This document shows positions 291 through 63,810 of a stretch of 64,000 nt of DNA, piece after piece (the first letter of the stretch is position 1; each line of letters opens with the position of its first letter). The notes under the pieces are model-generated. The model made no database searches and had not been told where the DNA came from. It saw nothing but the letters and a program-made list of their open reading frames with translations. The stretch is from positions 45,880,001 through 45,944,000 of the forward strand of contig OX597825.1 in NCBI GenBank assembly GCA_951406725.2. The letters run 5' to 3'. The position numbers were made by a program, and so were the translations under genes. The DNA is from Octopus vulgaris. Lineage: Eukaryota.

Positions 291-337
<47 letters not shown>

Positions 338-528
338 CCCTCATTGTTTGTTTTCTTGTTTGTTTTTATTTCTTGTACTATATTTTTTTGTAATTGTATT
401 TTTATTTTGTATTTTATTTAGTAATTTTATTTGCATCGTTTTTACGTCCTGTTTTTGTCCCATTTTTTTTCTTTCCTTGTTTTTACCCCTCTGCGAAGGA
501 ATTTTATTTAATTCTTTCGCAGGAAGGG

Positions 529-604
529 CTAGTTCGACGAGTTGTGTTCTGTCCTCACCTTCGAAACACGCATGGAGTCGTACTAGGGACAGCTGATGAA
601 GGGG
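529..604 (+). ncRNA. Putative non-circularly permuted hammerhead ribozyme, copy 1
   Basis: Stem III' TGTGT 543-547, H17 T548, stem I' CTGTCC 549-554. Stem II' CCTTC 558-562, GAA 563-565, stem III ACACG 566-570. Stem I GGACAG 587-592, CTGATGA 593-599, AGGGG 600-604. Confidence 0.7.
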
Positions 605-1312
605 AATTTTCCTTGTGTTGTTTGTCTTGTACTCTGTTTTTTCGTTGTTAAAATTAAGGTCCGTTTCCTCGTTTGTTTTTACGTTTTCGTTTCTCGTTGA
701 GTTCTACGTCTATTTGTGGTGTCCTGTACTCACGTATATATATTTAAATATGCATGTATATATACATGTAGATGTAGGTAGTACATATATGTATGTATGT
801 ATGCATATATTTTATTTATTACACTATTGTATGACTGAGCGCCCTCGCGTCGTTTCGTTTCGTTTCCTCCAAGTAAGTTTTTATATATAATTATGACGCG
901 AAACTCTATAACCCTTTGCTTGACCTTCCTTTCCTTCCTTGTCTTCCTCTCTCTCTCTCTCTCTCTCTCACTCCTCCTCATCTCTCTCACAGCCGCTTGT
1001 CTTCCTCTATTTCTCTCTCTCTCACAGCCGGGCGACTACTTCCTTTTGCTTGCGGCCTCCTAACAGTGAACACACTTTCTTCCTGCGCTCTTAAGAATCT
1101 TTTCTCGTCTAGGCCTAAAAGCCCTCATTGTTTGTTTTCTTGTTTGTTTTTATTTCTTGTACTGTATTTTTTTGTAATTGTGTTTTTATTTTTTATTTTA
1201 TTTTGTAATTTTATTTGTATCGTTTTTACGTCCTGTTTTTGTCACATTTTTTTTCTTTCCTTGTTTTTACCCCTCTGCGAAGGAATTTTATTTAATTCTT
1301 TCGCAGGAAGGG

Positions 1313-1388
1313 CTAGTTCGACGAGTCGTGTTCTGTCCTCACCTTCGAAATACGCATGGAGTCGTACTAGGGACAGCTGATGAAGGGG
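1313..1388 (+). ncRNA. Putative non-circularly permuted hammerhead ribozyme, copy 2
   Basis: CGTGT 1327-1331 pairs ATACG 1350-1354; T1332; CTGTCC 1333-1338 pairs GGACAG 1371-1376; CCTTC-GAA 1342-1349; CTGATGA-AGGGG 1377-1388. Confidence 0.7.
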
Positions 1389-1994
1389 AATTTTCCTTGT
1401 GTTGTTTGTCTTGTACTCTGTTTTTTCGTTGTTAAAATTAAGGTCCATTTCCATGTTTGCTTTTACGTTTTCGTTTCTCGTTAAGTTCTACGTCTATTTG
1501 TGGTGTCCTGTACTCACGTATATATATTTATATATGCATGTATATATACATGTAGATGTAGGTACGTACATATATGTATGTATGTATGCATATATTTTAT
1601 TTATTACACTATATATATATATATATGTAAAGTTTTTTCATGTAAACATATGATAAAATTCCTTTTTATTAATCTTAAATAATACTTTTCTCCGCACTTA
1701 TTTGGATTTTTAATAACATTTCCTTTTATTCTAATATCTTTTTTAAAATATCTCTATATATTAACCTATATATTTCTATGGAATTCGATTGCTCATCAAA
1801 TGCTCTGCACATCACTTTAGCTTACACTCTGTTGATATATATTTATTATTATGGTGTTCTTTCCTTCATGTACACCATCCAATAAAACAACTTGAAAAAA
1901 CAATTATGTATACTATTTTGCAGATATGTTCTCTACTAACGTATTAGTATACACTAAAGCTTTTTTTGCCAAATAAGATTTTTTTTATATGACA

Positions 1995-2875: not shown

Positions 2876-2930
<55 letters not shown>

Positions 2931-3038
2931 TATATACGCATTATATATATATGTGTGTGTGTGTTGTGTTATATATACAAATGTATACAAATAACACATC
3001 ACACACACAGTGTATATATATATGCTTTAAATATACAT

Positions 3039-3102
<64 letters not shown>

Positions 3103-3632
3103 GTATACACTTTGTATATATACATTATATATACATATTTATATATAGAACACACACACACATAAATTAACCCAATAAATATCTGATTCATAATATTTGT
3201 TCTCATGATTGTGTGATGATTGTGGCGATGATAATTCTCTCTATGAATGCAGATAGACGTAGAGATAGAGAGAGGATGTGAAAGAAAGAGTGACCGCGCT
3301 GGCGAATGCGGCGGGGGAAAGATAGTAGACGCTGTCAAACGACGTTATAGAGAGAATGTGAAAGGAAGGGAGGAAAGAGAGAGAGAGAGAGACGGAGGAA
3401 GAAAAGGTCATATATGAAAGAGAGAAAACTTGTCAAAGTGTGCGTTTTTTGGCCTAGTAACCACACCTTTTAAGATAGGGATTTCTAATCTAGTCCACTT
3501 CCATCCTCACCTCATTTTATATGTCCCTGTAAATTCTGGAGTCAATCCGACGGGATCTAGTGCCCTTTAACCCGTTCCAATGCCAAAACCAGACAAACAA
3601 ACTTTTTGCATTTCAGAATTATAATATAGAGA
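1995..3632 (-). mobile_element. Non-autonomous Helitron, array unit 1
   Basis: On the minus strand it starts TC (TCTCTATATTATAATTCTG) and ends in a GC hairpin ~10 nt before CTAG. Left flank is A1994; no TSD. Confidence 0.8.
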
Positions 3633-5753
3633 CTAGCTTAAGGTGACCCGCTCTACGCTCGGTTGTTTTGGTTGTTGGACCAATGTATTAATGTAGCATT
3701 GCTTTATTGTTTTAAAACGAAAGAGGCAATGCGTTTTTTTTTCTAAAAAAAAAAGACAAACGTCCGCCAATGGGAAGACAGTTCGTATTCGATTAGAGCA
3801 CTCTGGGTATAATCATAAAATTGAAAAATGGAATTTCGGAGGCGAATATTGTCGAGGACTCTAAAAAACAAATGTTTTTTAACCTGCAAGAAGATAGTTT
3901 AAACCAAAAAAGGCAGACTGTAAACTCACATCTGCAATAGTGTATGAAATTAGAATTCACACCCAGCTCAGTTTTGTAGAAAGAGTATCGCGACGTGAAC
4001 GCATGAGTTGAGAGTTTGACTGACAGACGTTATATGGTGACACATGCCAGTCCTTTCGACACCACCTAAACAATGGAACAGTGTATAAAATGTAATTAAC
4101 AACTCATTCACTTTATGAATGTCTTATGTTGGCGAAGAAACAATAACTTGACAAAACCGTTCAATGGAGACGTAGAAGGAATCGGAAAATGAGGAATAAA
4201 GAAACGAATGAGTTGGATCAAATGTTTGCAAACATTTTAACCCAATCTTCTTTATGAACCATGTTCTTTATAATGTCTTTATTTTCAAGAATGAAGAGAT
4301 AATCAAGACGTGCAGAAGAAACGACAATCATACAGTGAGAGGGGTGGTGGAAGAAAAAGCAACAGACTCTATCAAACGACGTTATAGAGAGAACGTGAAA
4401 GGAAGGGAGGAAAGAGAGAGAGACGGAGGAAGAAAAGGTCATATATGAAAGAGAGAAGACTTGTCAAAGTGTGCGTTTTTTTGCCCTAGTAACCACACCT
4501 TTTAAGATAGAGATTTCTAACCTAGCCCACTCACATCCTCACCTCATTTTACATGTCCCTGTAAATTTTGGAAGAAAGAGTAAGAGACGGCGAAGCTGTC
4601 AAACGTAGTTATAGAAAGAAATTGGAGGGAAGGAGGAAAAGAGAGAGATCGAGGAAGAAAAGGTGATATATGAAAGAGAGGACTGAAAAATAAAATATTT
4701 TGAAACCTAAAGATGATTTGGTTTACAATGAGAAAACGAATGAAATAATTAAGAAGTAAATATTTCAAAACTGGAAAATTTTTCAAATTTACCGACAAAT
4801 TTTTGTTAACGATGGTCGCCTTGAACATACAAATAAATTCTTTAAAAGGGTATAATGTTTCTTAGCACAGAAAATTTTTTATCCACGCAAAATAATAACA
4901 TATCTTCTGATAAATAATATCTGTTATAATTATGCGGTGGTGGTGGGAGATAATAATTCACCTTTTTGAAAGACCTGTGGTGGGAATATTTAAACTTTTG
5001 TGGTTGTCACGTTTCGTCGGTATAGATTCAAACAGAAATACATTGAGAGACGTGTTGGAGAAGAAAGAGAGACGGCAGAGGTGTCAAACGTCGTTATATA
5101 GAGAGAAATTGGAGGGAAGGGGGAAGAGATCGAGAGAGATCGAGGAAGAAAAGGTGATATATGAAAGAGAGAACTGAAAAATGAAATATTTTGAAACCTA
5201 AAGATAATTTGTTTTAAGAGAAAGATTCTTATGATTGTGTGGTGGTAGTGGTGGCGGTGGTTGTGGCGAGGATAATTCTCTCTATGAATGCAGACAGACG
5301 TAGAGAGAGAGAGAGAGTGACAGCGCTGGTGAAGGTGGCGGAGGAAAGATAGTAGACGCTATCAATCGACGTTATAGAGAGAATGTGAAAGGAAGGGTGG
5401 AAAGAGAGAGAGAGATGGAGGAAGACAGGCAGATAATAGAATGCGATAGCGGCGGGGGAAAGATAATAGACGCTGTGAAACGACGTTATAGAGAGAAGGT
5501 GAAAGGAAGGGAGGAAAGAGAATGAGAGATGGAGAAAGACAGATACATAAAAGAATGAGAGTAGACTTGTCAAAGTGTGCGTTTTTGACCCTAGCAACAC
5601 CTTTTAAGATGGGGATTTCTAACCTAGCCCACTCGCATCCTCACCTCATATAAATTTTGGAGTCAATCCGATGGGATCTAGTGCCCTGTAACCCGTTCTA
5701 ATGCCAAAACAAGACAAGCAAACTTTTTGAATTTCAGAATTATAATATAGAGA
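3633..5753 (-). mobile_element. Non-autonomous Helitron, array unit 2 (different interior)
   Basis: Same termini as unit 1. Interior from ~3665 is replaced by other sequence plus partial duplications of the element's own 5' region. Confidence 0.75.
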
Positions 5754-6647
5754 CTAGCTTAAGGTGACCCGCTCTACGCTCGGGTTGTGGTTACTTTCTG
5801 TTGCATCCTTTCTGATTTTTATCACCACATTCTCCCTCTTTGTTTCTCTCTCCTTTCTCTCTCACTTTCCCACTCTCTTACTCTTCCTTTCTCTCGGACT
5901 CTCCCTTGCTTTCTCTAACTCTCTATCTTTCTCTATCTATCTCTCTCCCATTTATAAACAAGAAAAGATCTTGAGTAAGTTGAGAAAGTAAAATATTTTG
6001 AAAGGTCACTCATAAATATCAGGCAGTGACAACGGAAAGGTCTGCTTCAAGGCAGACAGCAAAACACTAACATTTAAAAGGGACAGACGAACTTGCGAGC
6101 TGAATAAAAATTAAAAAAAATATTGGAAACCAAAGTTTGAAGGGATAGAATCTGAGGATAGTAGAGTCACCATGGCTGGCATTTCTTAACGACGGACAGT
6201 AACGTAGTGGCAGTTTAACGGCTGGCGTAAAATTTTGAACTTGATGTAAAAGAAAATTCCTAAACACCAAGTTTTGAAGTGATTCTTTCTCACGACAGTA
6301 GATCCACCATAGCAAGCATTCAAAACTTGTTCATCATGGACGGTAACATACTGACGATTTAAAGGCTGGCGCAAATTATTTAGCTTGATGTAACAGAGAA
6401 TTCCTAAACACCTGCTCCTGTAAATTTGAATCCCCTTCCAGCCCCATTTAGACCCCTTTTCACATTTTGGTTAATATAGCCCGATTTCATTCGGGTCAAC
6501 TCGGGTCACATTTTATAAGATGAGGAATTTTGTCCTAGAGGTCACGCCTTTCATTTGAGGAAAAAAATAATTGCCATGCAAACTCACCAGCACTTTTGAC
6601 ATAGGTGTGCATATTTTCAGCTCAACCGACCACATAATGCACACATA

Positions 6648-6714
<67 letters not shown>

Positions 6715-6806
6715 TGTGTGTGTGTGTGTTTGTGTATGTGTGTGAGTGTGTGTGTGCGTGTGTGTACGCATTATATATATAAATGTATACAAATTATATA
6801 CATATA

Positions 6807-6878
<72 letters not shown>

Positions 6879-7595
6879 CAGATATATACACTTTGTATAT
6901 ATACATTATATATACATATTTACATATAGAACACGCACACACACAAATTAACCCAATGAATATCTGATTCATAATATTTGTTCTCATGATTGTGTGATGA
7001 TGGTGGCAATGATAATTCTCTCTATGAATGCTGACAGGCACAGAGAGAGGGAGTGACAGCGCTATCGAAGGCGACGGGGGAAGATAGTAGAATTTCCCTC
7101 GCTTTCTCTTCCTCTCTATCTTTCTCTATCTATCTCTCTCCCATTTATAAACAACAAAAGTTCTTGAGTAAGTTGAGAAAGAAAATATTTTTACGCTTTT
7201 TAAACCCTTCGTCGTTATTCTCATTCACTCATTATTACTTTCTCCCATCCTTTCACTTTCTCTCTATAACGTTATAGAGAGAAAGTGAAGGGAAGGGATG
7301 TAGACGCTGTGAAACGACGTTATAAATAGAAAGTGAAAGGAAGGGAGGAAAGAGAGTGAGAGATGGAAGAAGACAGACACATAAAAGAATGAGAGTAGAC
7401 TGGTCAAAGTGTGCGTTTTTGGCCCTAGCAACGTCACCTTTTAAGATGGGGAATTCTAACCTGGCCCACTCGCATCCTCACTTCATTTTACATGTCCCTG
7501 TAAATTATGGAGTCAATCCGACGGGATCTAGTGGCCTTTAACCCGTTCTCAATGCCAAAAACCAGACAAAAAACATTTTGCATTTCAGAATTATA
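5754..7595 (-). mobile_element. Non-autonomous Helitron, array unit 3 (its terminal 9 bp displaced to 9715-9723)
   Basis: Same 3' hairpin/CTAG end. The other end stops at ...gaattata and lacks atatagaga. Confidence 0.75.
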
Positions 7596-8780
7596 CTAGC
7601 TTAAGGTGACCCGCTCTACGCACGGGTAAGAGTGTGGTTGTTACTTTCTGTTGCTTCCTTTCGGCACGTAAAAAGCACCATCCGAACGTGGCCGATGGCA
7701 GCGCCGCCTTGACTTGCTTCTGTGTCGGTGGCACATAAAGAGCACCAACTGATCGTGGCCGCTGCCAGCCTCTCTGATCCCTGTGCCAATGGCACGTAAA
7801 AAGCACCCACTACACTCACGGAGTGGTTGGCGTTAGGAAGGGCATCCAGCTGTAGAAAGACTGCAAGATCAGACTGGAGCCTGGTGCAGCCTCCTGGCTT
7901 CCCAGACCCCGGTCAAACCGTCCAACGCGTGTTAGCACGGAAAACGGACGTTAAACGATGATGATGATGATGATTCTCCCTCTTTGTTTCTATCTCCTGT
8001 CTCTCTCACTTTCCCACTCTCTTACTCTTCTTTCTCTCGGAGTCTCCCTCGCTTTCTCTTACTCTCTATCTTTATCTATCTCTCTCCCATTTATGAACAA
8101 CAAAAGATCTTGAGTAAGTTGAGAAAGTAAAATATTTTGAAAGATCACTCATAAATATCAGGCAGTGACAACGGAAAGGTCTGCTTCAAGGCAGACAGCT
8201 AAACACTAACATTTAAAAGGGACAGACGAACTTGCGAGCTGAATAAAAATAAAAAAGTATTGGAAACCAAAGTTTGAAGGGATAGAATCTGAGGATAGTA
8301 GAGTCACCATGGCTGGCATTTCTTAACGACGGACAGCAACGTAGTGACAGTTTAACGGCTGGCGTAAAATTTTGAACTTGATGTAAAAGAAAATTCCTAA
8401 AAATTAAGTTTTGAAGTGATTCTTTCTCACGACAGTAGACTCACCATGACAAGCATTCAAAACTTGTTCATCATGGACGGCAACACTTTGACGATTTAAA
8501 GGCTGGCGCAAATTATTTAGCTTGATGTAACAGAGAATTCCTAAACACCTGCTCCTGTAAATTTTAATCCCCTTCCAACCCCATTTAGACCCCTTTTCAC
8601 ATTTTGGTTAATATAACCCGATTTCATTCGGGTCTACTCGGGCCACATTTTATAAGATGAGCAATTTTGTCCAAGAGGTCACGCTATCATTTGAGGAAAA
8701 AAATAGTTGCCATGCAAACTCGCCAGCACTTTTAACATAGGTGTGCATATTTTCAGCTCAACCGACCACATAAGGCACAC

Positions 8781-8855
<75 letters not shown>

Positions 8856-9714
8856 GCATTATATATATATGTGTATGTGTGTGTACGCATTATATATATA
8901 CAAATGTATACAAATTATATATATATATAAATTAGAGATAAAACCATTGGGCAAATCAAACAGTGAAAAACATAAACCAAAACATAAAAATAAAAATATA
9001 ATATACGAAATATATAAAATATAAAATTTTAAAATTTAAATTATTTAAATTTAAAATTAAAATTATTAATATATATTTATAATTTAAAAAAATATATATA
9101 TAACTATCAAAAAGTATTAAAAAGTTTAATATACATAAATACAGATGTATTCACTTTGTATATATACATTATATATACGTTTATATATGTAGAACGCACA
9201 TACACACACACATATAAATTAACCCAATAAATATCTGATTCATAATATTTGTTCTCATGATTGTGTGGTTGTGGTGGCGATGATAATTCTCTCTATGAAT
9301 GCAGACAGACGTAGAGAGAGTGTGAAAGCGCTGTCGAAGGTGGGTAGGGGGAGATATAGGATGCTGTGAAACGACGTTATAAAGACAAAGTTGAGGGAAG
9401 GGAGGTAGACGCTGTGAAACGATGTTATAGATAGAAATTGATGGGAAGGGAGGAAAGAGAGTGAGTGATGGAGGAAGACAGATACATAAAAGAATGCGAG
9501 TATACTTGTCAAAGTGCGTTTTTTGCGCTAGTAACGACACCTTTTAAGATAGGGATTTCTAACCTAGCCTACTCGCATCATCACCTCATTTTACATGTCC
9601 CTGTAAATTTTGGAGTCAATCCGACGTGATCTAGTGGCCTTTAACCCGTTCTCAATGCCAAAACCAGACAAACAAACAAAAAACTTTTCGCATTTCAGAA
9701 TTATAATATAGAGA
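7596..9714 (-). mobile_element. Non-autonomous Helitron, array unit 4
   Basis: Both termini present; carries a retroposon insertion at 7663-7973. Confidence 0.8.
7663..7973 (+). mobile_element. RTE-related 3'-end retroposon/SINE with (GAT)n tail inserted in Helitron unit 4
   Basis: Absent from the sister units and replaces ~17 bp of target. Ends ggacgttaaacgatgatgatga, like the RTE 3' ends at ~51855 and ~58529. Confidence 0.7.
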
Positions 9715-9723
9715 ATACAGAGA

Positions 9724-10604
9724 CTAGCTTAAGGTGACCCGCTCTACGCGCGGGTAAGAGTGGGGTTGTTACTTTCTGTTGCATCCTTTCTGTTTTTTAT
9801 CACCACATTCTCCCTCTTTGTTTCTCTCTCCTTTCTCTCTCACTTTCCCACTCTCTTATTCTTCCTTTCTCTCGGACTCTCCCTTGCTTTCTCTAACTCT
9901 CTATCTTTCTCTATTTCTCTCTCTCCCATTTATAAACAACAAAAGATCTTGAGTAAGTTGAGAAAGTAAAATATTTTGAAAGATCAATCATAAATATCAG
10001 GCAGTGACAACGGAAAGGTCTGCAAGACAGACAGCAAAACACTAACATTTAAAAGGGACAAACGAACTTGCGAGCTGAATAAAAAAAAATATTGGAAACC
10101 AAAGTTTGAAGGGATAGAATCTGAGGATAGTAGTGTTACCATGGCTAGCATTTCTTAACGACGGACAGTAACGTAATGACAGTTAAACGGCTGGCGTAAA
10201 ATTTTGAACTTGATGTAAAAGAAAATTCCTAAACACCAAGTTTTGAAGTGATTCTTTCTCACGACAGTAGACTCACCATGACAAGCATTCAAAACTTGTT
10301 CATAATGGACGGCAACACATTGACGATTTCTGGCGCAAATCTTTTAGCTTGATGTAACAGAGAATTCCTAAAAACCTGCTCCTGTAAATTTTAATCTCCT
10401 TCCAACCCCATTTAGACCCCTTTTCACATTTTGGTTAATATAACCAGATTTCGTTCGGGTCTACTCGGGCCACATTTTATAAGATGAGCAATTTTGTCCT
10501 ACAGGTCACGCCTTTCATTTGAAGAAAAAGTTGGCATGCAAACTCACCAGCACTTTTAACATAGGTGTGCATATTTTCAGCTAAACCGACCAAATAATAC
10601 ACAC

Positions 10605-10654
<50 letters not shown>

Positions 10655-11048
10655 TATATACACTTTGTATATATACATATATATATGTAGAACACACACA
10701 TATATGAATTAACCCAATAAATATCTGATTCATATTTGTTCTCATGATTGTGTGGTGATGATAATTCTCTCTACGAATGCAGACAGACGTAGAGAGAGTG
10801 TGAAAGCACTGTTGAAGGCGGTGGGGTAGGACGCTGTGAAACGATGTTATGGAGAGAAAGTGAAGGGAAGGGAGGTAGAGGCTGTGAAACGATGTTATAG
10901 AGAGAATGTGAAGGGAAGGGAGGAAAGAGAGTGAGAGATATGTCCCTGTAAATTTTGGAGTCAATCCGACGGGATCTAGTGGCCTTTAACCCGTTCTCAA
11001 TGCCAAAACCAGACAAACTTTTTGCATTTCAGAATTATAATATAGAGA
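9724..11048 (-). mobile_element. Non-autonomous Helitron, array unit 5
   Basis: Both termini present. Right flank is T11049, so the whole array sits in an A|T target. Confidence 0.8.
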
Positions 11049-23009: not shown

Positions 23010-23289
23010 TGTGGGATGACGTCAGCGGCTGGGTGCGTTGACCGGAAGTTGGGGCAATCGGAAGGGGCAGCCGTGAGGCGTGTGCAGGGAGAGGGGATAT
23101 CGGCCTTTCCAACGAGGGTCGCCGAGGTGTTAAGACGTGTGAAGACGTTGCTAAGGTTGGGTGAAGCAGCTGCTATCTTTAGCGTTCGGGTCGGGGCTGT
23201 GACGAAGGATCCGTTACCACTGAAGGGTCTCTATCAGAGCGAAGAGAAGGTAGGTGCCTTTATATATCGACTATCTCGCACACACCACA
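23010..23289 (+). repeat. 5' LTR (280 bp) of Ty3/Gypsy element
   Basis: TGTGG...CCACA termini, preceded by TSD TTCTG (23005-23009). Matches 26863-26963 plus the reverse complement of 27179-27357. Confidence 0.9.
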
Positions 23290-23324
23290 AGCTATTTCGG
23301 CGTTCCACGTAAGTCGTCACTACG

Positions 23325-24071
23325 ATGTCTGCGAAAATCAGGATCGCCAGCGACATCATCAGACCCTTTAATGGCGAAGGCGATGTAGTGGCCTGGATGC
23401 GTAAAATCCGGCTGGTGGCAAGACTGCAAGGTATAAGCGATGTAGCAAGTCTTATGGCGCTGTATTTAGAAGGGAGCGCGTTAACGTTATACCTTGAGAT
23501 AGACGAGGAAGAACGTCTGAGCGAGGAAAAGATAGAGCAACGATTGCGGGATGCCTACACGGAATGTGAATACACAGCTTTTGCTAAGCTGGGTACGATT
23601 CAGTGGACGGGAGGTCAAGTGGACGAGTATGCGGCAGAAGTTAGAAGGTTAGCGACGCTGGCTGGGTTTACGGGAGAAGGGCTGGAGAGAGCGGCGCGGC
23701 TGGCGTTCGTAAATGGGTTCCCCGACGATGTAGGGATTCACCTACAACGATTGCCCAGGATTAAAAGGATGGCGCTGAGCGAACTGGTGACTCAAGCCCG
23801 CGTGTTGACGCGACACTCTGGGCGGAAGGCGATAGCGATGGCGGTGACGGAGATGCGTAAAGACGGACGACGACCGGAGAAAGACGTACAGAAGCGGCCG
23901 TTCACAGGTCAGTGTTTTAGATGCCAGGGATCGTACATGGCGCGGGACTGTACGCAACCGGAGCCAGTTTGCTATCGATGCAGGCAAACAGGGCACGTCG
24001 CCCGTGATTGCGACCAGGGAAACGACCACGGGGAAGTTGCTGCCTCTCGAACTTTCCCCGCAAACGAGTAG
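23325..24071 (+). CDS. gag: Gag protein with two zinc knuckles
   Basis: Intact 248-aa ORF; CFRCQGSYMARDC (His replaced by Tyr) and CYRCRQTGHVARDC. Confidence 0.85.
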   Translation: MSAKIRIASDIIRPFNGEGDVVAWMRKIRLVARLQGISDVASLMALYLEGSALTLYLEIDEEERLSEEKIEQRLRDAYTECEYTAFAKLGTIQWTGGQVDEYAAEVRRLATLAGFTGEGLERAARLAFVNGFPDDVGIHLQRLPRIKRMALSELVTQARVLTRHSGRKAIAMAVTEMRKDGRRPEKDVQKRPFTGQCFRCQGSYMARDCTQPEPVCYRCRQTGHVARDCDQGNDHGEVAASRTFPANE

Positions 24072-26842
24072 AGGCGCTATTGGAGACGCTGCCATTAATT
24101 GACGTGGAGGCCGAGGGGAAGACATTCAAGGCCCTCGTGGACACGGACTGTACGACCACCCTTGTGACTTCAAGGGTGACGAAGGAATGGAACGGGGCAA
24201 GTAGCGTCCGGGCGGTCGACGGCAGCGAAATCCGTTGCAGAGGCAGCAGCAAGGTAGAGATAGTGGTGCGCGGCGCGACGCTAAGGCTGCAGGTAATTGT
24301 GGATGAACGCGTGATAGATAGTGTTGATGTGGTGATGGAGATGGACGCCATCAACTGCCTTGGTGGCGTCGGTGTTGTGGGAAATGAGGTCACGTTCGGA
24401 AGCGTGGGGGCGTCGTGCACTGCGAGCCAGGATCGCCAGAGAGAGCAGAGCCCCGCGAGGGACTGCGCCGCTTACACCATCGAGGACAAAGACTTTCAGG
24501 CGGCGTTCGATGGTTAGCGGTGGACGATAGAGTGGCGATGGAAGGACGAGCCCTCGACGCTGGAAAACAGGGTGAGCAGTTTACCAGCATACCCTGAAAG
24601 GCCACGCCAGGGTCGAGTTTGAAGACGAGGTGGAGAGGTGGATCGAGGAAGGGGTCCTTGTCCCTTGGAAGGAGGAGGTAACGGGCGGAGTGCTACCCCT
24701 GATGGCGGTGGTGCAGCCTACGAAGGGAAAAGTCAGACCGGTGCTGGACTTCAGGGAGCTAAACCAGCATATATCGCGTCACACGGGAGGTGAAGCGACA
24801 GACGTTTGTGGCGAGACGTTACGTGCGTGGAGACAGTCGACCGAGGCAGCGACGATTGTCGACTTGAAATCGGCATACTTGCAGCTCCATGTGAGCGACA
24901 AACTGTGGCGATATCAGCTGGTGCGGTACAAAGGCCGGACGTACTGTTTAACCAGGCTGGGTTTCCGTTCCGAAGATCATGGCGGCAGTACTTAACTCCG
25001 TCCTAGGGAAAGAGGGCAAGATTAGAAAGGCCACCAGCTCCTACATTGACGACATTTTGGTGGACGAAACAGTAGTGCCAGCCAATGAGGTAGTTAGACA
25101 TCTGGAGAAGTTCGGACTGATTGCGAAGCTACCGGAGTCGATGGAAGGGGGAGCCACGCTGGGGCTGAAGCTGCAAAGAGATAGATCGGGTGAATTGGTG
25201 TTCCGGAGAGGGAATGAAATCCCAGAGCTGAGTTCCAGCGTCAGCAGGAGAGAGCTGTTCTCGGTGTGTGGGAAGTTGGTCGGTCACTACCCAATCGCCG
25301 GATGGCTGCGCACGGCGTGTAGTTACACCAAGAGACGAGCAGAGGGGGAGAGTTGGGGCGACAAGGTGGGAGAAGGGACGGTGGCGATGATGCAGGAAAT
25401 CCTAGAGAGGACGAGAGTGGAAGACCCGGTCAGGGGGAACTGGTACGTGCCCAAGACGGAATGCGGGACCGTCTGGTGTGATGCTAGCAGTATAGCGATA
25501 GGGGTTGTGTTGGCAATCGAAGGTGCTGCGGTGGAGGACGCGGCCTGGCTTCGGAAAGCAGATGATTTCAACCACATCAATGTCGCCGAATTAGACGCGG
25601 TGCTGAAAGGGGTGAACTTGGCCCTGAAATGGGGGCTGCGCACAATTGAAATCCGGACGGATTCGGCCACTGTGCTTGGCTGGGTAGGATCGGTGATCAC
25701 CGGTGAAAGGAGAGTGCGGACGAAAGGTGCCGCGGAGATGTTAGTGAAGCGCCGTCTATGAGTTCTAGGTGAATTGATCGCCGAGTTCGGACTGAAGCTG
25801 AATGTGGTTTTCGTGCCTTCGGAGAAAAACAGGGCGGACGCACTGACCAGGGTGAAAAGAGCGTGGTTGGAAGAACCGGAGGAGGCCTGGAAATGGATAG
25901 GTGCAGCGTGTCGGTTGGATGACTCCGAACTGAAGAGATTGCACGCTATGCATCACCTGGGTGTGGACAGGACCCTGTATCTGGCGAAGAAAATTGATGC
26001 TGACGTCAGTAGGAGAAGCATCCGGAAGGTGGTCGGGAGCTGCGCCATGGTGTCAGTCCATCGACCCTGCTCCGTGTGGGCATGAAAAGGAAAAGCCTTT
26101 CGGTGGAGCAGAACTGGAAAAGGCTAGCTGTGGATGTGACACACTACCGTCAGGGAATGTACCTTTCCATGGTCGATTGTGGGCCAGGCCGGCTGGCCAT
26201 TTGGAGGGAGTTAAGAACGGGCATTGCTGACGAGATCGTGCAGATCCTGAACGGGATATTTTTAGAGAGAGGTCCCGTGGAAGAACTACTGATGGACAAC
26301 GGGGCGGCGTTTCGTTCGGAAGCATTGAGGGTTATGCTTGATCGGTGGAATGTGCGTCGCTTGTTCAGAGCAGCGTATAGGCCGAGCGGTAACGGGATCG
26401 TGGAGAGGCACCATCGGACAGTCAAGGCCATAGCGGAAAGAGGGCAAATTTCGCCGCTTGAAGCAGTTTTTTGGTACAACTTGTCTCTCCGATCCGGACA
26501 AGCTGAGGAATCTGTGCCGCAGAGAGCTGTGTTCAAATGTGAATGGAGGCACCCGAGCAAAGCGCCGGAGGGTCACGAGGAAGAGAAGGGACCCGTTCGC
26601 GTGAAAATAGGGAAGTCTGGGTTAAGCCACCAAAGGCGCGCTGTACGTCTCAATGGAGCAGAGGAACGGTGACGGCGGTCAATTCCAGAAACAACGTATC
26701 TGTTGATGGAATGCCGCGACACGTCTTGGACCATCGCAGGATTGTCGCTTCGACGGACGACGATTCTGGAGAGGGAGAGAACGAGGTGCCCAGCTTGAGA
26801 AGATCTCGACGCGCAAGGCGCCCTCCCGGTCGGAGATTGTGA
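24008..26842 (+). pseudogene. pol: Pol polyprotein (protease, RT, RNase H, integrase), disrupted
   Basis: ALVDTDC (decayed DTG), VDLKSAYLQ, YIDD, WCDAS, MDNGAAF, GNGIVER; broken by stops (e.g. 24515, 25759) and frameshifts. Confidence 0.9.
24017..24075 (+). other. -1 programmed ribosomal frameshift signal (slippery heptamer + pseudoknot)
   Basis: G GGA AAC 24017-24023 in the gag frame; pol is in the -1 frame. Stem 24029-24038/24050-24060; loop GCCTCT 24042-24047 pairs AGAGGC 24070-24075. Confidence 0.75.
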
Positions 26843-26963
26843 TCTTTAAGATCAGGGTGGCGTGTGGGATGACGTCAGCAGCTGGGTGCGTTGACCGGAA
26901 GTTAGGGCAACCGGAAGGGGCAGCCGTGAGGCGTGTGCAGGGAGAGGGGATATCGGCCTTTCC

Positions 26964-27022
26964 GGTTAATATAGGGCGTAACAAATATTTGTTACAGATA
27001 TTTGTTACGCCCTATATTAACC
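26964..27022. repeat. 59-bp palindrome made of two terminal ~25-bp ends of the foldback element
   Basis: GGTTAATATAGGGCGTAACAAATAT ... ATATTTGTTACGCCCTATATTAACC, identical to the termini of 27360-29281. Confidence 0.9.
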
Positions 27023-27357
27023 CTGTTTTCTGACTTTGTAAACATGTCCACGGGTGTTAGACTAGTGGAGTTTGAAAAGGTGCTCAGATGGTTAATAATT
27101 TTATGGGTGTCTGCCAAGTCAGCTGCCAGACGTCGGAGTTTCAATGTATCCATGCCCAAGGAAATAAGGCGTTCAGAATGTCGTGTGTGGGAGATAGTCG
27201 ATATATAAAGGCACCTACCTTCTCTTCGCTCTGATAAAGACCCTTCAGTGGTAACGGATCCTTCGTCACAGCCCCAACCCGAATGCTAAAGATAGCAGCT
27301 GCTTCACCCAACCTTAGCAACGCCTTCACACGTCTTAACACCTCGGCGACCCTCGTT
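27023..27357 (-). other. 335-bp inverted segment (CR1 piece 27023-27178 + distal 3' LTR 27179-27357)
   Basis: The reverse complement reads LTR distal 179 bp, TSD TTCTG, then CR1 sequence ending GAAAACAG. Confidence 0.9.
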
Positions 27358-27359
27358 AC

Positions 27360-29281
27360 GGTTAATATAGGGCGTAACAAATATCAGAAAATCAAAAAAA
27401 AAATGTGTGTAATAGGTGTAAAACAACTTCCTATGAACGAATATGAAAAAAAAATTCGCGCACGCGAAAGGGGGTGGGGGAGAGGCCTCGGAAAATTCAC
27501 ATCGGGAAGTTCCGAAAGCGTCTGAGGAGCTGACCCGGGCACCAAAACAAAAAAAAAATAGTGTAATATGTGTAAAACAACTTGCTCTAAACGAATATGA
27601 CCAAAAAAAATGCGCTCTCGCGAAAGAGGGGTGGGGGAGAGGCCTCGGAATATTTATATCGGGAATTTCCGAAAGCGTCTGAACCGGGCACAAAAACAAA
27701 AACAAAAACAGCGTAATAGGTGTAAAACAACTTGCTCTAAACGACTATCATGAAAAAAATGCGCGCTCGCGAAGGGGGGTGGGGGAGAGGCTTCGGAAAT
27801 TTCACATCTTCAGTCCACGGCCTTTAAACTAAGAAAAAATAGTGTAATTGGTGTAAAACTACTTGTTCTAAACGAGTATCAAGAACACACACTCACACAT
27901 GAATCATAAACTCCGTATTTCGCAAAAAAAAAATAAAGAGAAGAAATTCTGGAAAAAGTGAAGAAATGTTGGATCTCATTCCTTGGTTAAAGCTATTTTA
28001 AACATTAAATTTATGCTTTTCTTTGAAATAGTTCAGATATATGCAATTCTTCTCACTTATTAAGATGCATTTATCAGAAAAAAAGAGACAGAAAAAATAA
28101 TTATTTTGTGTCAATCCTTCCCTAATTATCCTTTATTAATTAGTTTTGGCGTGTATTTTTTTCCCAAATTTATTTTTTCACCTTTACAACACTGTTTAGT
28201 AAAGCAATTAATTATCTTTATAATTTGCATATTTGACTTATTAATCAAAATTCTCTAGATGTAATATATACTAAGTAATGCATCCTTCATTTATGTGTTC
28301 CGTTCTGTATTATGCATGCGTGACTGTTTGTATGTAAGTGTGTTTAACTGTGCACATGAATGTGAATATTAAAGAACATATTTATTTACTATGATTGTTA
28401 TTTTCAGAACAAATAAATCTTTTGGCTGTTATGTTATTGATGTTATTATTATTGCTAGTTAAAGGGTGGTGACTTGGCTGAATATTTTGAGTCTTGTAGT
28501 ATGTAGTTGTGTTAGTCAATATTCTGAGTTCAAATCCAACTCATTTCTTTATCATCATTATCGATGGACCACTCAAAGAGGTATGTATACATTATCATTT
28601 TCGTAACATAATTTCTGTAGTATTTCAAGATGTTTCTGACACGTATTTTGATTCACATGGCGGAGATCCAACATTTCTTCACTTTTTCCAGAATTTCTTC
28701 TCTTTATTTTTTTTTTGCGAAATACGGAGTTTATGATTCATGTGTGAGTGTGTGTTCTTGATACTCGTTTAGAACAAGTAGTTTTACACCAATTACACTA
28801 TTTTTTCTTAGTTTAAAGGCCGTGGACTGAAGATGTGAAATTTCCGAAGCCTCTCCCCTACCCCCCTTTCGCGAGTGCACATTTTTTTCATGATAGTCGT
28901 TTAGAGCAAGTTGTTTTACACCTATTACGCTGTTTTTGTTTTTGTTTTTGTGCCCGGTTCAGACGCTTTCGGAAATTCCCGATATAAATATTCCGAGGCC
29001 TCTCCCCCACCCCTCTTTCTTGAGAGCGCATTTTTTTTTGTCATATTCGTTTAGAGCAAGTTGTTTTACACATATTACACTATTTTTTTTTTGTTTTGGT
29101 GCCCGGGTCAGCCCCTCAGACGCTTTCGGAACTTCCCGATGTGAATTTTCCGAGGCCTCTCCCCACCCTCCTTTCGCCAGCGCGAATTTTTTTTTCATAT
29201 TCGTTCATAGGAAGTTGTTTTACACCTATTACACACATTTTTTTTTTGATTTTCTGATATTTGTTACGCCCTATATTAACC
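27360..29281. mobile_element. Non-autonomous foldback DNA transposon, ~618-bp modular TIRs, 8-bp TSD (Merlin-like by termini)
   Basis: Arms 27360-27977 and 28663-29281 are inverted copies built from ~155-bp subrepeats, around a 685-bp AT-rich spacer. GG...CC termini. GAAAACAG at 29282-29289 and its reverse complement at 27023-27030. Superfamily is inferred. Confidence 0.85.
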
Positions 29282-29585
29282 GAAAACAGCACAGCTCCCA
29301 TGACTTTCGGAAACATTTTTTCACGCTAAGAGTTGCTGAAACATGGAGCAGACTGCATCAGTTGTTAGTTGTCGGAGCACTGCATCCTTCAAAACTTCCA
29401 TGCTTCCTGAGATTCACCAACACTACACCTGACTTTCTGCCCTCCATACACACGCAAGCATGTATCTGACTCATACACTGTTCACTTTCCAGACATTTGT
29501 ACATTACTGCATATACTTTATAAGCACTTTTTGACAAGTTGTGGTGCACCTGAGCACTGTATGCAATAATTTCATTATTATTATA
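29282..29585 (+). mobile_element. CR1-like LINE 3' end (continuation) with short (ATT)n tail
   Basis: Homologous to ~18960-19283. Confidence 0.85.
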
Positions 29586-33347: not shown

Positions 33348-36300
33348 CAGTAGTTTTATTTTTATAGCGTGCTTTCACTTCACTACCGAGCGCAGCTCTG
33401 TGTGCCTTGGGTATGTGCTGTGATTTGTTGTGATGCTCTGATGGTTATTGTATGGAAAGTGTTCTGCATAGGATGTGTGCAGTGCCTAGTAGTGCAATTT
33501 TCTGTATGTTATATGTGTTTGTAAGTCCTGGTGTTTTTGTTATGTATTTGTCTGAATATTTTTTTATCATGCCTAATGCACCTACTATGATAGGAATTGT
33601 TTCTGTTTTCAGATTCCACATTCTAGTTACCTCTATTTCCAGGTCTTTGTATTTTGAGAGTTTCTCCATTTCTTTTAGAGACACGTTGTCATCAGCCGGT
33701 ATTGATACATCAATTAGAAAGCATTTTTTTCTTCATGATCTCTGACAACTATATCTGGTCTGTTGGCCTTAATTTCTCTATCTGTGTGTATTGGCATATC
33801 CCAGAGTATGGTTGCTTTCTCGTTTTCTGTGACCTTTTCTGGTGTGTGCCTATACCATCTTTTTTCTGTTGTTATTCCATAATGTTGGCATAGCTTCCAA
33901 TGTATGTAGGTTCCAACTCTGTCATGTCTGTGAATATATTCCTTCTTAGCCAGGACTGGGCAGCTAGAGATAATATGATTTATTGTTTCTTGTCCATCTC
34001 CACATATTCTGCAGTTACTTGTAATATTTCTTTTCATTACATGTTTTTGGTAATTTCTGGTGGGGAGGCTTTGGTCTTGTGCTGCAATTAAAAATTCCTC
34101 TGTTTCTGCTTTGAGTCCTGAGCTTCTCAACCATTGCTGGGATTTTTCTTTGTCTATTTCTTTTGTGTTTAGTTTAGTCCAGTATTTACCATGAAGGGGC
34201 TTTTCTTGCCATCGTTTTATCATGGTTCGTTGCTGTTCTATTTTTAGTTTGGATTTCATTTGTTTTATCGCTTTTGTTGTTTCTTCATCTTCTTCTTCTT
34301 CTTCGTGTTTATTAGGTGGTATGATTTCTTGTTTGTATTTGTCAGCTTCCTTAAATACTGAGAACAGTTTTTTGTTTTGCTCGTGTTTTGCCGCTATCTG
34401 GATCAGTTTTCCTTCCTTCTGAAGTAGATATTTTTGCAGTCCTATGATGGTTATTTTATAGTAGTTTTCCAGCTGTATAAGGCCTCTACCACCTTCTATA
34501 CATTGTATATATAGTCTTTCTATGTCAGATTTTGGGATGCATCCTAGATCCTGTCATTATTTTTCTTGTTTTCCTATCTATTTTGGTCAGTTCATTTAGT
34601 GTCCAGTTAAGGATATTGTAGCTGTAACTTATAACTGGGACAGCTAAAGTGTTGATACCTATTATCTTGTTTTTAGCATTGAGCTCTGTGTTTAGTATTG
34701 ATCTAACTCGTCTATAATATTCTTTTTTTATTTTCTCTTTCATTTGTGTGTGTTGTGTCTTATCTAGTTCATGGATTCCTAAGTATTTGTAAATTTGGCT
34801 TTGGTCTAATTCTTTTATTTCATTGGTTTTACCTAGTGTGATGTTGTTGCTCTTAACTAGTTTTCCTCTTTTCATGGTTACTTTGGCGCATTTTTCTAAT
34901 CCAAATTTCATATCTATTTCTTTGGTAAATCCATGAACTGTCTTTAATAGTGTTTCCAGCTGTTTGTCATTTGCAGCGTATAGTTTTAGGTCATCCATAT
35001 ATAAAAGGTGGCTGATCGTTTTGCCGTAACATTTATATCCGCATCCAGTTCTATTTAGCATATCAGATAGAGGTGACAGTGCCAAGCAGAAAAGGAGTGG
35101 AGAGAGCGTGTCTCCCTGGAATATTCCTCTTCTAATGGGGATGTCTTTGGTTTTCATGAGTCCCTCTTTTGTTTGGAGGTGTAGGGCTGTTTGCCATTTA
35201 TTCATAGAGTGCTCTATGAATTTTATGATTGTTGGTGCTACTTTGTTAATGGCTAGTGTTTCGAGGATCCATGTGTGGGGGATGCTATCAAACACCTTTT
35301 TGTAGTCATTCCAGGCCATACTGAGGCCTTTCTTCTTTCTGTGGCTTTCTTCAGTTATGGCTTTATTAATCATTAGTTGATCTTTACAGCCATATGAGCC
35401 TTTGCGGCATCCTTTCTGCTCTTCTGGGAACAGTTTGTTTTCGTCCAGGTGCTTGTTCAGCCTTTGTGATATCACTGCAGTAAATACCTTGAACATAGTA
35501 GGGAGGCAGGTTATTGGTCTGTAGTTTTCTGGTTTTTCTGTTTCATTTGATTTGGGAATTAAGATGGTTTTCCCCTTCGTGAGCCATTCAGGCATTGTCT
35601 CTGGCTCTGCTAGTACGTTGTTAAAGTTTTCAGCCAGCTTTTTGTGCATTCCTGTTAGATATTTCAACCAGAAGTTGGGGGATCTTGTCATGCCCAGGTG
35701 CCTTCCAGTTGCTTAGTCTTTGCAGTGCCTGGGTGACCTCTTCAGTTGTTATGGGGGTCCAAAGTTGTTCAGATGCCGAGTTTGTTATTTTGATACTCCT
35801 TTTTTTGGTGGTTCATTCGCCGACCATATTTCTCTCCAGAATTCTTCCAATTCTTCTGCCGTTGGTGCTGCAGTGACTTCTATTTTATTTTTGCCCAGTT
35901 CTTGGTAGAACTTTTGGGGTTGGAGTTGAACTTATTGTTTTCTTCAAAGAAGCGTTGGCGTTTCTTGTACCGGCGGATCCTTTGTGCTTTAGCAAGGATA
36001 TCTTGCTTCAGCTTTTCTTTTATTTCAGGCAAATCTTTCTCTGTGATGTTATATTTGCGGAGTATTTTCGTTCCCTTTTTTGTTGCTCAGTAGCATTGAT
36101 TGTTTGCTGATTTCATTAAGAATCGACAGGTCTTTTCTAATTTTTTTTATTTTGCTTTGGATGTTATTTATCCACAGGGTTTGTTTGGGTGGTGGTACTC
36201 CTGTTTGGGCGGGTTTGGGTGAGTATCCAGCTTCTTTTGTGGCTGCAGTGGCTGCTGCGTATATTAGGTTATTTAGCTCAGTGATATCACTTTTTTTTGA

Positions 36301-37302
36301 TTCAGTGGCTATCAGTTCAGTGACGGCTAGGTTTATGCTGTTTATAATAGGTGTTGTTATTTCGTTTATTTTGATTCTTGGGAGGTATGGTCGGTGGTCC
36401 ATTTTGAGCTCTGTGGTTTTCAGTTCTTTGATTATTTTATTTTTTATATTATCATAATCATTAGGCTCCCCTTCGTTGTTTACATCGTGTTTGTTGGGAA
36501 TGTTGCGTTTGTCTTCATGTTTTACAGTTTCAGTGTTTATATTATTGGGCATTGTTGTGTGGCTTCTATCTACATTTTCCTGGTGTATGTTTTCTTTTAG
36601 GTGTTCTATTTCTATTTCTGATATTTTTTTTGTGTTGAGAATGTATCTTCGTACGTTAGCTAATTTATTAGGGTTCATTGCTGTATCCAAGTCTATATCT
36701 CTATTATTTTCCTTCCATATTTTATATGTATGTGTTGTTGTATTTTCATTTTTTGGGTAGAGTACTGCTGTGAAGTATGCGTGTAAGATAGAAATGTATT
36801 CCTCACGTGTCCATTTACGTCTTTTGGGTTTTATTTGCGGGACATGAGGTACAACGTCCGGCCCATTATTTTGACAGTCGTCATTTTCGTAGGGTACTGG
36901 TCCGTTTATTTCTGTTGTCACATTATTTCGCACGTGTAGTTTTTCGTACATTTTTTGTTGTAAGTTTAATGTACGTACTGCTCGATTGTTATTCTTGGGT
37001 TGAATAGTATCGGTGGCATTTAATTTCTTCATAGTTCCTTTGTACATGGTGTTTGGGGTCGGGGATGATCGTGATGTTCCACGCATGTTTACATGTGTTG
37101 CGTTAGAGGTGGAGATGATATCGAGTCAAAAACATCATTTCGTTTCGAAAATAGTAATAAATTTCAATTAGTATTACTTACTTGGATACAGTCCAATTCT
37201 TTGTTAGTAAAACTTTGGCTCCATAGGATGTCCTTGTTTTCGATGTTTGTGGATAGATTTCGGAGCTCTGAATTTTCCTTCTTACATCCCCCGGTGTTAT
37301 TC
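33348..37302 (-). mobile_element. Near-full-length R4/Dong-like non-LTR retrotransposon (RT + restriction-like endonuclease) inserted in (TAA)n
   Basis: Single fragmented ORF with RT, CCHC finger and REL endonuclease motifs; (ATT)n runs on both sides (33332-33347 and ~37303-37417). Confidence 0.9.
33445..37086 (-). pseudogene. R4/Dong ORF, frameshifted
   Basis: RRKWTREE (N-term), NYRPITCL, GIFQGDTLSPLLF, YMDD, CRICGDGQETINHIISSC, RHD, NRPDIVV, EKLSKYKDL. Confidence 0.9.
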
Positions 37303-62324: not shown

Positions 62325-63064
62325 ATAGAGATTGACCAGGTAGAGGCTCTTTCGTTGGTTTGATTGTGTGATGAGATTTTTTTACACATATATGTATAAT
62401 ATGCATATATATCATTGGTAGAAGTTAGAGAGTAAGTCAAAGCATGAGAGTTTTGTGTATTGGCACATATCAAACATGAATTTGTCCATTGTCACTCTGT
62501 AACTTGTGATGAAATAACTTCTAAAATACAAAATTATGTCGAAAACATTAAGAGTAAACCATGTACCAGTATTGTACCAGTATTGGAAGTTTCAAAGTGT
62601 TTAGTTAAAAAAAATTAATTAAATAATCTGTCCGTCAAATTGAATAGATCCTAAATGGATAAAAAGCAAAGTCGACCGTGGCAGAATTTGAACTCAAAAC
62701 ATGAACAGAGGCAAAATACCACTTATCATTTCACCCGCCATGCTAACGTTTCTGCCAGCTCTCCACCTTAGAACATAAGCATTTATTTTAGCAATATATT
62801 CTTTAATAAATATTCTTATTGATAAGCTTTACTTCCCCCACATGACCACTGGCTATTCTCCTAACTTGTGTTTCTTCCTTTCTTCCTCGTCAAGGAAGAC
62901 GTATTGTTCTCTGTGTCTTGTCCAGGCTTGTTTATTCGTGTTCACCACCACAACCTCATTTAGGCTTAGCAGCTGTTCCTGTTTGTTTTCACTGTCTTGT
63001 TTTTGCCGCCATCTTGACCCTCTGCAAGATTGCAAATTTTATTTAATTTGCTTTGCACGAGCAA

Positions 63065-63140
63065 CTGTTTTATTGAAGGCGTATCTTGATGTGAATTACT
63101 TGAAATACAGATTAGAAAAACAGCCGACAACTGATGAAGG
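63065..63140 (+). ncRNA. Diverged relative of the permuted hammerhead motif, in a related repeat (~62830-63330)
   Basis: GTAT 63081-84 pairs ATAC 63105-08; C63085; TTGaTG 63086-91 pairs CGaCAA 63125-30; CTT-GAA 63099-63104; CTGATGA-AGG 63131-40. Confidence 0.6.
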
Positions 63141-63349
63141 GTCGTTCCTTGTGTTACTTGTCTTGTTTTCCATTTGTTTCTTTCATTGCTTGCTAAAAAA
63201 GCCCTTATTCCATGTCCTCGTACTTTGTATTATTTGTTGTGTATGTTTTGTAACATTCTGTGCCCACATATGCATATGTATACATGTATGTACGTATATG
63301 TATGTGTTTTTTTTTCTCTCTAGTTTCAGCTCAGAGCTGCAGCCATGCT

Positions 63350-63370
63350 GATGCATATATACATATATAT

Positions 63371-63443
<73 letters not shown>

Positions 63444-63810
63444 TACATTATTACATGATTGAATACCACGCATTCTTTTCCAAGTAAGTTTTATCTATAC
63501 ATACATACATATATACTTACATACATACATACACACATACATACATACATACAAATATATATGTGTGTGTGTACGTACGTGCCTATGTATATACAAGTAT
63601 ATGAGTGTGTGTATGTATATATATTTATAAGTATGTACCTGTATGCGTGCGTGTGACTGTGTAAATGCATGTGTGCCTGCATGTATGTGTGTGCATGTAT
63701 ATATATATGTGTGTGTATGTATATATATGTATATATATATGTATGTGTATTTGTATGTATGCATATAAGCACATGTATATGTATGTGTGTGTGCACGTAT
63801 GTATGTTATT
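63350..63810. repeat. Compound (TA)/(TG)/(TACA) microsatellite field, one of many in the window
   Basis: Directly visible low-complexity runs. Confidence 0.9.

Follow-up and report, generated by a model that had tools for sequence, protein, structure and literature searches.

Two permuted forms of the hammerhead ribozyme provide the closest precedents for the motif described here. Type-SGC hammerheads (HRIMA-1 and variants) have validated cleavage and contain a fourth helix that ties stems I and II (Eckert et al. 2023, PMC10085705). They are reported from metatranscriptomes only and from no genome of a known organism (PMC10085705), and the term 'type-SGC' occurred in Eckert et al. only in our search of the open-access literature. 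Type-CSG is represented by five sequences from soil DNA in the accessible portion of the supplement to PMC10085705. The six permutations of Eckert et al. assume that CUGAnGA is inseparable from the adjacent stem strands, and known alignments show at most 1–2 inserted nucleotides between A9 and G10.1 (PMC10085705); the available part of Perreault et al. 2011 lists core insertions of only 1–2 nt. In minizymes, a linker from A9 to G12 replaces helix II (PMC544870, in excerpt), and hammerheads of Penelope-like elements (PLEs) often have an extra base after A9. No active hammerhead lacking the A9–G10.1 bond came to light as a precedent, and the open-access search, with the subscription literature outside its reach, returned no SGC, CSG or split-core hammerheads in PLEs.

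The Naiad PLEs form the second point of comparison. In the accessible sections of Craig et al. 2021 (PMC8557442), Naiads are described as having (TA)n targets and no canonical hammerhead, with core halves sometimes located 'on either side', and they are flagged only as 'HHR_core' or 'HHR_half_core'.

The locus analyzed here lies near the end of a 64,000-nt stretch of the Octopus vulgaris genome (contig OX597825.1), referred to as the window. Its features are listed in Table 1, together with those of a related repeat near the start of the window; we refer to the two as subfamilies 2 and 1, respectively. A first-pass annotation had proposed a hammerhead with A-C-B block order at the subfamily-2 locus, consisting of stem III GTAT (63081–63084)/ATAC (63105–63108), an AUC triplet ending at 63085, GAAA (63102–63105), stem I TTGATG (63086–63091)/CGACAA (63125–63130) with one mismatch, and CTGATGAAGG (63131–63140) followed by a downstream tract in common with subfamily 1. 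All of these elements were found as described, the block order is real and corresponds to S-G-C, and the proposed cut 3′ of 63085 stands as a prediction by analogy. The motif is larger than was recognized, however: it starts at 63016, 5 nt before the start given earlier, and beyond stems I and III it includes helices that had been missed, namely PA, P0, the interaction helix and a stem II (none had been named) whose 5′ strand lies upstream. The earlier account also lacked the host element, for which we propose Naiad-type PLEs and their non-autonomous relatives, and the published S-G-C precedent.

Table 1. Positions of the motif strands and of the repeats that carry them, numbered from the first nucleotide of the window.
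Feature	Position	Strand	Remarks
Subfamily-1 partial tandem repeat	335..1612	+	About 1.6 units, non-coding, TA microsatellites on both sides
Subfamily-1 motif copy 1	486..604	+	All helices intact; CTGATGA at 593; predicted cut 3′ of 548
Subfamily-1 motif copy 2	1270..1388	+	784 nt period; CTGATGA at 1377; predicted cut 3′ of 1332
Subfamily-2 repeat with motif	62835..63495	+	Non-coding, 5′-truncated; bounds approximate, by eye
PA 5′ strand GACCCT	63016..63021	+	Partner is the strand after CUGAUGA; 95.1% of cells paired (27 copies); in MFE fold
P0 hairpin	63022..63058	+	Directly adjoined by PA (5′) and by the stem II strand (3′); window copy has lost the outermost pair
Stem II 5′ strand (X)	63059..63064	+	Starts at G10.1; displaced 5′ of the cleavage site; 92.0% paired
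Interaction-helix 5′ strand CTGTTTT	63065..63071	+	92.6% paired; equivalent to type-SGC stem I/II interaction helix by analogy
Stem III 3′ strand and AUC triplet	63080..63085	+	Predicted cut 3′ of 63085, by hammerhead analogy
Stem I 3′ strand	63086..63091	+	One private mismatch
Stem II 3′ strand	63096..63101	+	Decayed in window copy, with U at position 11.1 plus one mismatch
GAAA core and stem III 5′ strand	63102..63109	+	From sequence and subfamily-2 alignment
Interaction-helix 3′ strand AAAACAG	63117..63123	+	From subfamily-2 alignment
Stem I 5′ strand and CUGAUGA core	63125..63137	+	From sequence and subfamily-2 alignment
PA 3′ strand AGGGTC	63138..63143	+	Immediately 3′ of A9; in MFE fold

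The window copy carries a G-U pair at 10.1–11.1, and stem I, stem II and P0 all contain mismatches. In the subfamily-2 alignment these mismatches are private decay, that in stem I among them, and stem I has six pairs in most copies. The window copy is a decayed family member and likely impaired. Intact natural copies exist, among them 1270–1388 in the window, L004:1507–1635, L102:180–316 and an L204 unit. Its repeat ends in CCAAGTAAGTTTT, followed by a TA-rich microsatellite. Both subfamilies share this terminus (63480–63493 and 868–880), which resembles a splice donor; an intron near the pLTR has been described for PLEs. An Rfam scan of the window gave 83 matches at E≤1, nearly all to microsatellite-like miRNA models and none to a hammerhead. 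The window also contains 2–4 kb imperfect tandem duplications (2000–11000), broken gag/protease/RT/integrase-like frames of an LTR retrotransposon recognized by eye (23313–26669), nested long inverted repeats (27356–29285 and 23111–27357) and broken non-LTR RT frames on the minus strand (33717–37125).

The two subfamilies are closer than the first-pass annotation implied in crediting them with little primary identity: 103/164 aligned columns over the motif are identical, one pair differs in stem III and two differ in stem I. Its view that the two repeats are related is supported. Both are abundant, with 2,767 first-look candidates for subfamily 2 and 2,491 for subfamily 1 in the 2.8-Gb genome. 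In the 40 candidates scored for each, non-self matches of subfamily 2 are 88–93% identical and those of subfamily 1 96–99%; subfamily 1 is young and subfamily 2 older. When the window copy was aligned to 26 of 29 further subfamily-2 loci, 92.1% of 1,158 cells in the seven helices (43 pairs) were paired, compared with 33–45% when partners were slid by 1–3 columns, a contrast that is partly built in because the structure was read from the same sequences. This pairing and the candidate count uphold the earlier statement that the motif is not a chance occurrence. The related statement that RNA structure is under selection holds between families, where stems I, II and III all show compensatory change (stems I and III had been named originally), but not within subfamily 2, where covariation in the 27-copy alignment equals the shuffled value. 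Core positions in subfamily 2 are conserved only slightly more than unpaired ones (96.9% versus 94.5%).

Further families surfaced by chance in a descriptor run on fetched loci. From 5′ to 3′, the strands of the fold are PA-5′, the P0 hairpin, stem II 5′, an interaction strand, stem III 3′, NUH and stem I 3′, then, after 1–4 nt, stem II 3′, GAAA, stem III 5′, the second interaction strand, stem I 5′, CUGANGA and, after 0–2 nt, PA-3′. The strand preceding GAAA finds its best partner in X, which lies upstream of the cleavage block and begins with G10.1, and the strand following CUGAUGA pairs with the 5′ flank to form PA. With the stem II strand upstream and the PA strand after CUGAUGA, A9 and G10.1 are therefore not joined. 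The gap between PA and X is filled by P0, with zero spacer or a 1–2 nt symmetric loop. Block C is accordingly not intact in the 14 representatives, and CUGANGA is not followed by stem II either directly or within the 1–2 inserted nt of known hammerheads.

Genome-wide counts of CTGANGA alone are uninformative. The two-part core CGAAA-N20–28-CTGAWGA occurs 31,553 times compared with 3,331 for a reversed control, a 9.5-fold excess. About 90 of the first 100 matches listed for this pattern, combined with earlier loci, gave 219 distinct matches in 38 clusters, of which 158, those with both stem I and stem III, allowed joint scoring of stem II, PA and P0. With their own strands, 115/158 copies reach the passing score of 27 (mean 31.1). 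With a stem II 3′ strand and tail borrowed from another family, and under the same optimizing search, 54/474 did so (mean 21.1). In a place-ordered sample 35/49 pass, and many of the failing copies are 5′-truncated. Sixteen representatives passed, two of which were left out for doubtful registers, leaving the 14 used here. In these, 372/392 helix cells are paired with varied pair types; since registers were chosen by maximizing pairing and the families are related, so that cells are not independent, it is the swap control that carries weight rather than the raw percentage. The minus-strand repeat at L224:1501–1540 and L227:1501–1540 is a separate one, with GAAA then CUGAUGA at similar spacing, and misfits the split-core descriptor.

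Several details of the alignment are those of a hammerhead core. Position II.1 is G-C and III.1 is A-U in 14/14 representatives, matching the hammerhead core requirement, and II.1–II.5 are paired in 70/70 cells, with 3–4 pair types at II.2–II.5. An NUH triplet is present in 14/14; the parser had demanded U16.1 and H but not G10.1–C11.1. The CUGANGA and GAAA core is also present in copies gathered by similarity and not by the core pattern. The first PA pair takes three forms (A-U, G-C or U-A), the linker from stem I 3′ to the stem II 3′ strand is 1–4 nt, and the interaction helix has 7 bp with 92.6% pairing in subfamily 2 and was followed by eye in other families. Unconstrained MFE folds recovered PA and P0 in 4/4 sequences, with modest z-scores of −1.4 to −2.4. 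Locating P0 without regard to the other helices produced no sharp register peak, a test that was blurred because the greedy hairpin overran its ends. Overall, we are highly confident that this fold exists and is under selection. The predicted motif conforms to a hammerhead in all the sequence criteria examined save A9–G10.1 continuity, and on that feature it is outside type-SGC.

The repeats consist of non-coding units of about 780–900 nt, arranged as partial or full tandems. Their 3′ end is fixed and lies in (TA)n, and the extent of 5′ truncation varies. Their connection to Naiads comes from a further family (family 4), which occurs mostly as single, 5′-truncated copies and whose 3′ end matches by eye those of Naiad_Ovul and Naiad_Obim in the published extracts. 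At one locus (L183), an RT C-terminus, recognized by eye from motifs, runs straight into a 3′ UTR carrying the family-4 motif. Among 29 other Naiad-type RT loci, nine have a long family-4 motif match 1.3–1.7 kb downstream and one more has a 25-nt match. The 144 Naiad-type RT matches represent decayed RT ends, without exception short or broken, and the longest open frame is 292 aa. For subfamilies 1 and 2, no adjoining ORF or RT was found in 60 loci with 1.5-kb flanks, nor was either subfamily seen joined to an RT in 74 RT loci; a Naiad origin is suggested by the shared fold, P0 loop and target, and the non-coding repeats would then be non-autonomous relatives of Naiad-type elements. Two non-coding families (L111–L135 and L191–L215) are very young, with about 99% identity and, in one, 24/25 copies identical over 165 nt, while every Naiad-type ORF found is broken. 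A young family (L204:1300–2200) is present in runs under five organism codes and is therefore shared among related species.

Other candidate parents were rejected. An ORF 7 kb upstream of the window (L063) gave no match in a Pfam search and reads as a C-terminal-endonuclease PLE with a canonical type I hammerhead, not as a Naiad parent of the motif. As judged by eye, this decayed element occupies L063:2242–3250, its hammerhead follows at about 4005–4075, and near L063:4200 there is another minimal, hammerhead-like core that has an additional A following A9. Intact PLE ORFs of 800–1,090 aa, with RT and then a GIY-YIG-like C-terminus, are present at L097–L100, L105, L106, L109 and L110, some near-identical; the fetched flanks downstream of L097, L098 and L100 contained no type I hammerhead core. 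As donors, these C-terminal-endonuclease elements were discarded, as four repeat units match their loci only as separate insertions. The motif near the intact ORF of L102 is likewise a separate insertion in (TA)n, and L033 and L034, considered as LTRs 11 kb apart, have flanks that are also duplicated and no element ORF between them.

For the Naiads of other animals, we read by eye, without a computed control, extracts of file S5 of PMC8557442 that cover part of the 54 Naiad consensi; the Euprymna, Darwinula and Mnemiopsis ends lay outside the assigned set. In this subset, split forms with PA, P0, X, the interaction helix, stems I and III and NUH were seen in consensi from corals (Naiad_Amil, Aacu and Anas), an acanthocephalan (Plae), a clam shrimp (EuTe) and octopuses (Obim and Ovul), and a ctenophore consensus (Naiad_Bfor) shows the split form with a two-pair stem I. 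As read by eye from these extracts, the split form thus spans five phyla. In the coral, acanthocephalan and clam-shrimp extracts, the post-core strand matches by eye the 5′ flank, and the counterpart of the pre-GAAA strand is the upstream strand. The nematode extracts (Naiad-1, -2 and -3_Nbra, Hcon, Hpol and Asuum) differ in having, by eye, an intact block C, C-S-G order and an interaction helix, i.e. type-CSG, and a spider extract (Naiad_Smim) tentatively looks S-G-C with block C intact. All resolved forms have one common circular strand order, and the window form is this circle opened between A9 and G10.1. Type-CSG is thus seen in nematode Naiads, and the type-CSG sequences in the accessible supplement of PMC10085705 came from soil DNA; one may speculate that retroelements of soil nematodes were their source. 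No hammerhead core was seen by eye in the 300-nt windows of the bivalve Naiad 3′ ends extracted. The oyster, ark-shell and pearl-oyster extracts have another conserved GC-rich 3′ motif in common, which may be a different structured RNA.

An indirect sign of cutting in vivo comes from the 5′ ends of 100 copies of the largest family, picked only by a 3′-end 20-mer with 6,487 genomic matches. Among the 71 copies that were still extending, 17 start ≤15 nt 3′ of the predicted cut (background 5%; binomial p 3e-8), in a family other than the window's and in a bin that a previous, overlapping sample had pointed to; the other bins from −90 to +104 contain 0–8% each. Four copies start at +0 itself, including one at an inversion junction that is ambiguous. 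The cluster could also result from RT stalling at helices or from TA microhomology at +5 to +10; in subfamilies 1 and 2 the sequence around the cut lacks such microhomology. In addition, 43 of the 100 copies reach beyond the whole motif, and uncut RNA must therefore also be a template, as reported for another PLE in the accessible text of PMC11167929. A depth step near the cut in sequencing contigs was considered as RNA evidence and dropped; sister families align only from there.

The reading that these observations favor, and that we consider likely, is a conserved hammerhead-core fold in S-G-C order, with the core opened at A9/G10.1 and clamped by two extra helices, which would serve Naiad-type PLEs and their non-coding relatives as a self-cleaving ribozyme. 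The reading closest to it employs identical helices, put together either from two tandem units or within a circular monomer, with block C contributed by one unit and X and blocks S and G by the next. PA would then close the element body as a loop, equivalent to a type-CSG hammerhead with a very large A9/G10.1 insertion. The partial or full tandems of about 780–900 nt, the true CSG order seen by eye in the nematode Naiad extracts and a head-to-tail joint in contigs of probable RNA runs, where circle and tandem, and RNA and DNA, are indistinguishable, all fit this arrangement, and both assemblies may coexist. Nevertheless, every strand is available within about 130 nt of one unit, the local fold with PA and P0 is the MFE structure, and family 4 consists mostly of single, 5′-truncated copies, and we regard a two-unit or circular fold as unlikely. 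Just as unlikely in our estimation is a fold kept for a function other than catalysis, for instance as a signal for binding or priming by the Naiad RT, with a core that is vestigial or protein-dependent. A location near the 3′ end, the site of PLE RT binding and priming, would suit such a role, as would the absence of a core from the bivalve 300-nt windows that were extracted and the finding, in the accessible part of PMC11167929, that the hammerhead of an anole PLE needed protein for cleavage and was dispensable for insertion in vitro. It would not account for the retention of CUGANGA, GAAA, G10.1–C11.1, A15.1–U16.1 and NUH while flanking helices vary freely, also across phyla (the search pattern itself had fixed CGAAA and CTGAWGA in the in-genome sample), nor for 5′ ends that cluster at the predicted cut.

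More doubtful still is a plain type-SGC hammerhead whose stem II is made by the post-CUGAUGA strand, one base being bulged, and whose PA, P0 and upstream strand belong to an inactive regulatory conformer. The first-pass annotation had stressed the unchanged CTGATGAAGG, which is indeed present, and in subfamilies 1 and 2 four pairs are possible between the post-core and pre-GAAA strands; single-base bulges are common at the post-A9 site in the available sources, and the spider extract tentatively offers an S-G-C form with intact block C. Across the 14 representatives, however, this pairing reaches four pairs in only five with a bulge and in none without one, six have just 0–1 pairs, and the post-core strand of the coral, acanthocephalan and clam-shrimp extracts matches the 5′ flank instead, again by eye. 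The remaining explanation, that short motifs fell into this layout by chance in an AT-rich repeat, could draw on the lack of an Rfam hammerhead in the window and on the bare enrichment there of CTGANGA alone (46 versus 32.5 expected). It is refuted by the 9.5-fold excess of the two-part core, the swap control and the like architecture seen by eye in the published consensi of five phyla, as far as these were extracted, and retains next to no probability.

In the split-core ribozyme that we favor, PA and P0 would stack into one nicked helix, which A9 would enter at one side of the nick and G10.1 would leave at the other. The clamp would substitute for the missing A9–G10.1 bond, allowing the usual active site to form and to cut 3′ of NUH. 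Change on the A9 side is tolerated, as minizymes replace helix II and PLE hammerheads often carry an extra base there. Cleavage after NUH would split tandem or read-through transcripts and would define the 5′ ends of some of the RNA molecules used for reverse transcription into (TA)n targets. The split form may have originated from a ribozyme of CSG or SGC order by tandem duplication and trimming, because all forms have one circular order.

That the split core is an active ribozyme is, from sequence, nearly as likely as the favored reading as a whole. A little less firmly, we propose that it constitutes a seventh natural topology, i.e. an active hammerhead without the A9–G10.1 bond, closed by a nicked coaxial PA/P0 helix. 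It would be the Naiad ribozyme from ctenophores to octopus, with type-CSG in nematodes, and non-circular permutations, far from being rarities of metatranscriptomes, would number tens of thousands of copies in animal genomes. If this is true, the assumed rule that CUGANGA and the first stem II strand cannot be separated falls, and non-circularly permuted hammerheads move from anonymous metatranscriptomes to named animal genomes at high copy number. The puzzle of Naiads that have no canonical hammerhead and yet contain unexplained core fragments would be solved, CSG, SGC and split-core forms would make an evolutionary series in one retroelement clade, and descriptor- and Rfam-based censuses would be overlooking a large ribozyme class.

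The octopus elements are similar to Naiads in their (TA)n targets, partial tandems, fixed 3′ end and variable 5′ truncation, but the window subfamilies are non-coding and none was seen joined to an ORF. With canonical PLEs and non-LTR retrozymes they share the placement of the hammerhead, here a candidate, within a repeat that belongs to a PLE or to a non-autonomous tandem derivative (PMC4209133, PMC7229834 and bioRxiv 10.64898/2026.07.22.740005, in their accessible parts). In those same sources, the type I or minimal hammerheads have C-G-S order and often a tiny stem III and act as dimers, whereas the octopus motif has full stems and a pseudoknotted order. The octopus units, being tandem and non-coding, resemble non-LTR retrozymes except that their ribozyme candidate is not type I. 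Compared with type-CSG, the circular strand order is the same and the octopus circle is opened at A9/G10.1 rather than after stem III. With type-SGC the motif has in common the S-G-C order, the short linker between the 3′ strands of stems I and II, the I/II interaction helix, the unchanged core and the mutual crossing of the three core helices. It departs from type-SGC in its split block C, with the 5′ strand of stem II and its interaction strand located 5′ of block S, in the added PA and P0, and in its presence at high copy number in an animal genome.
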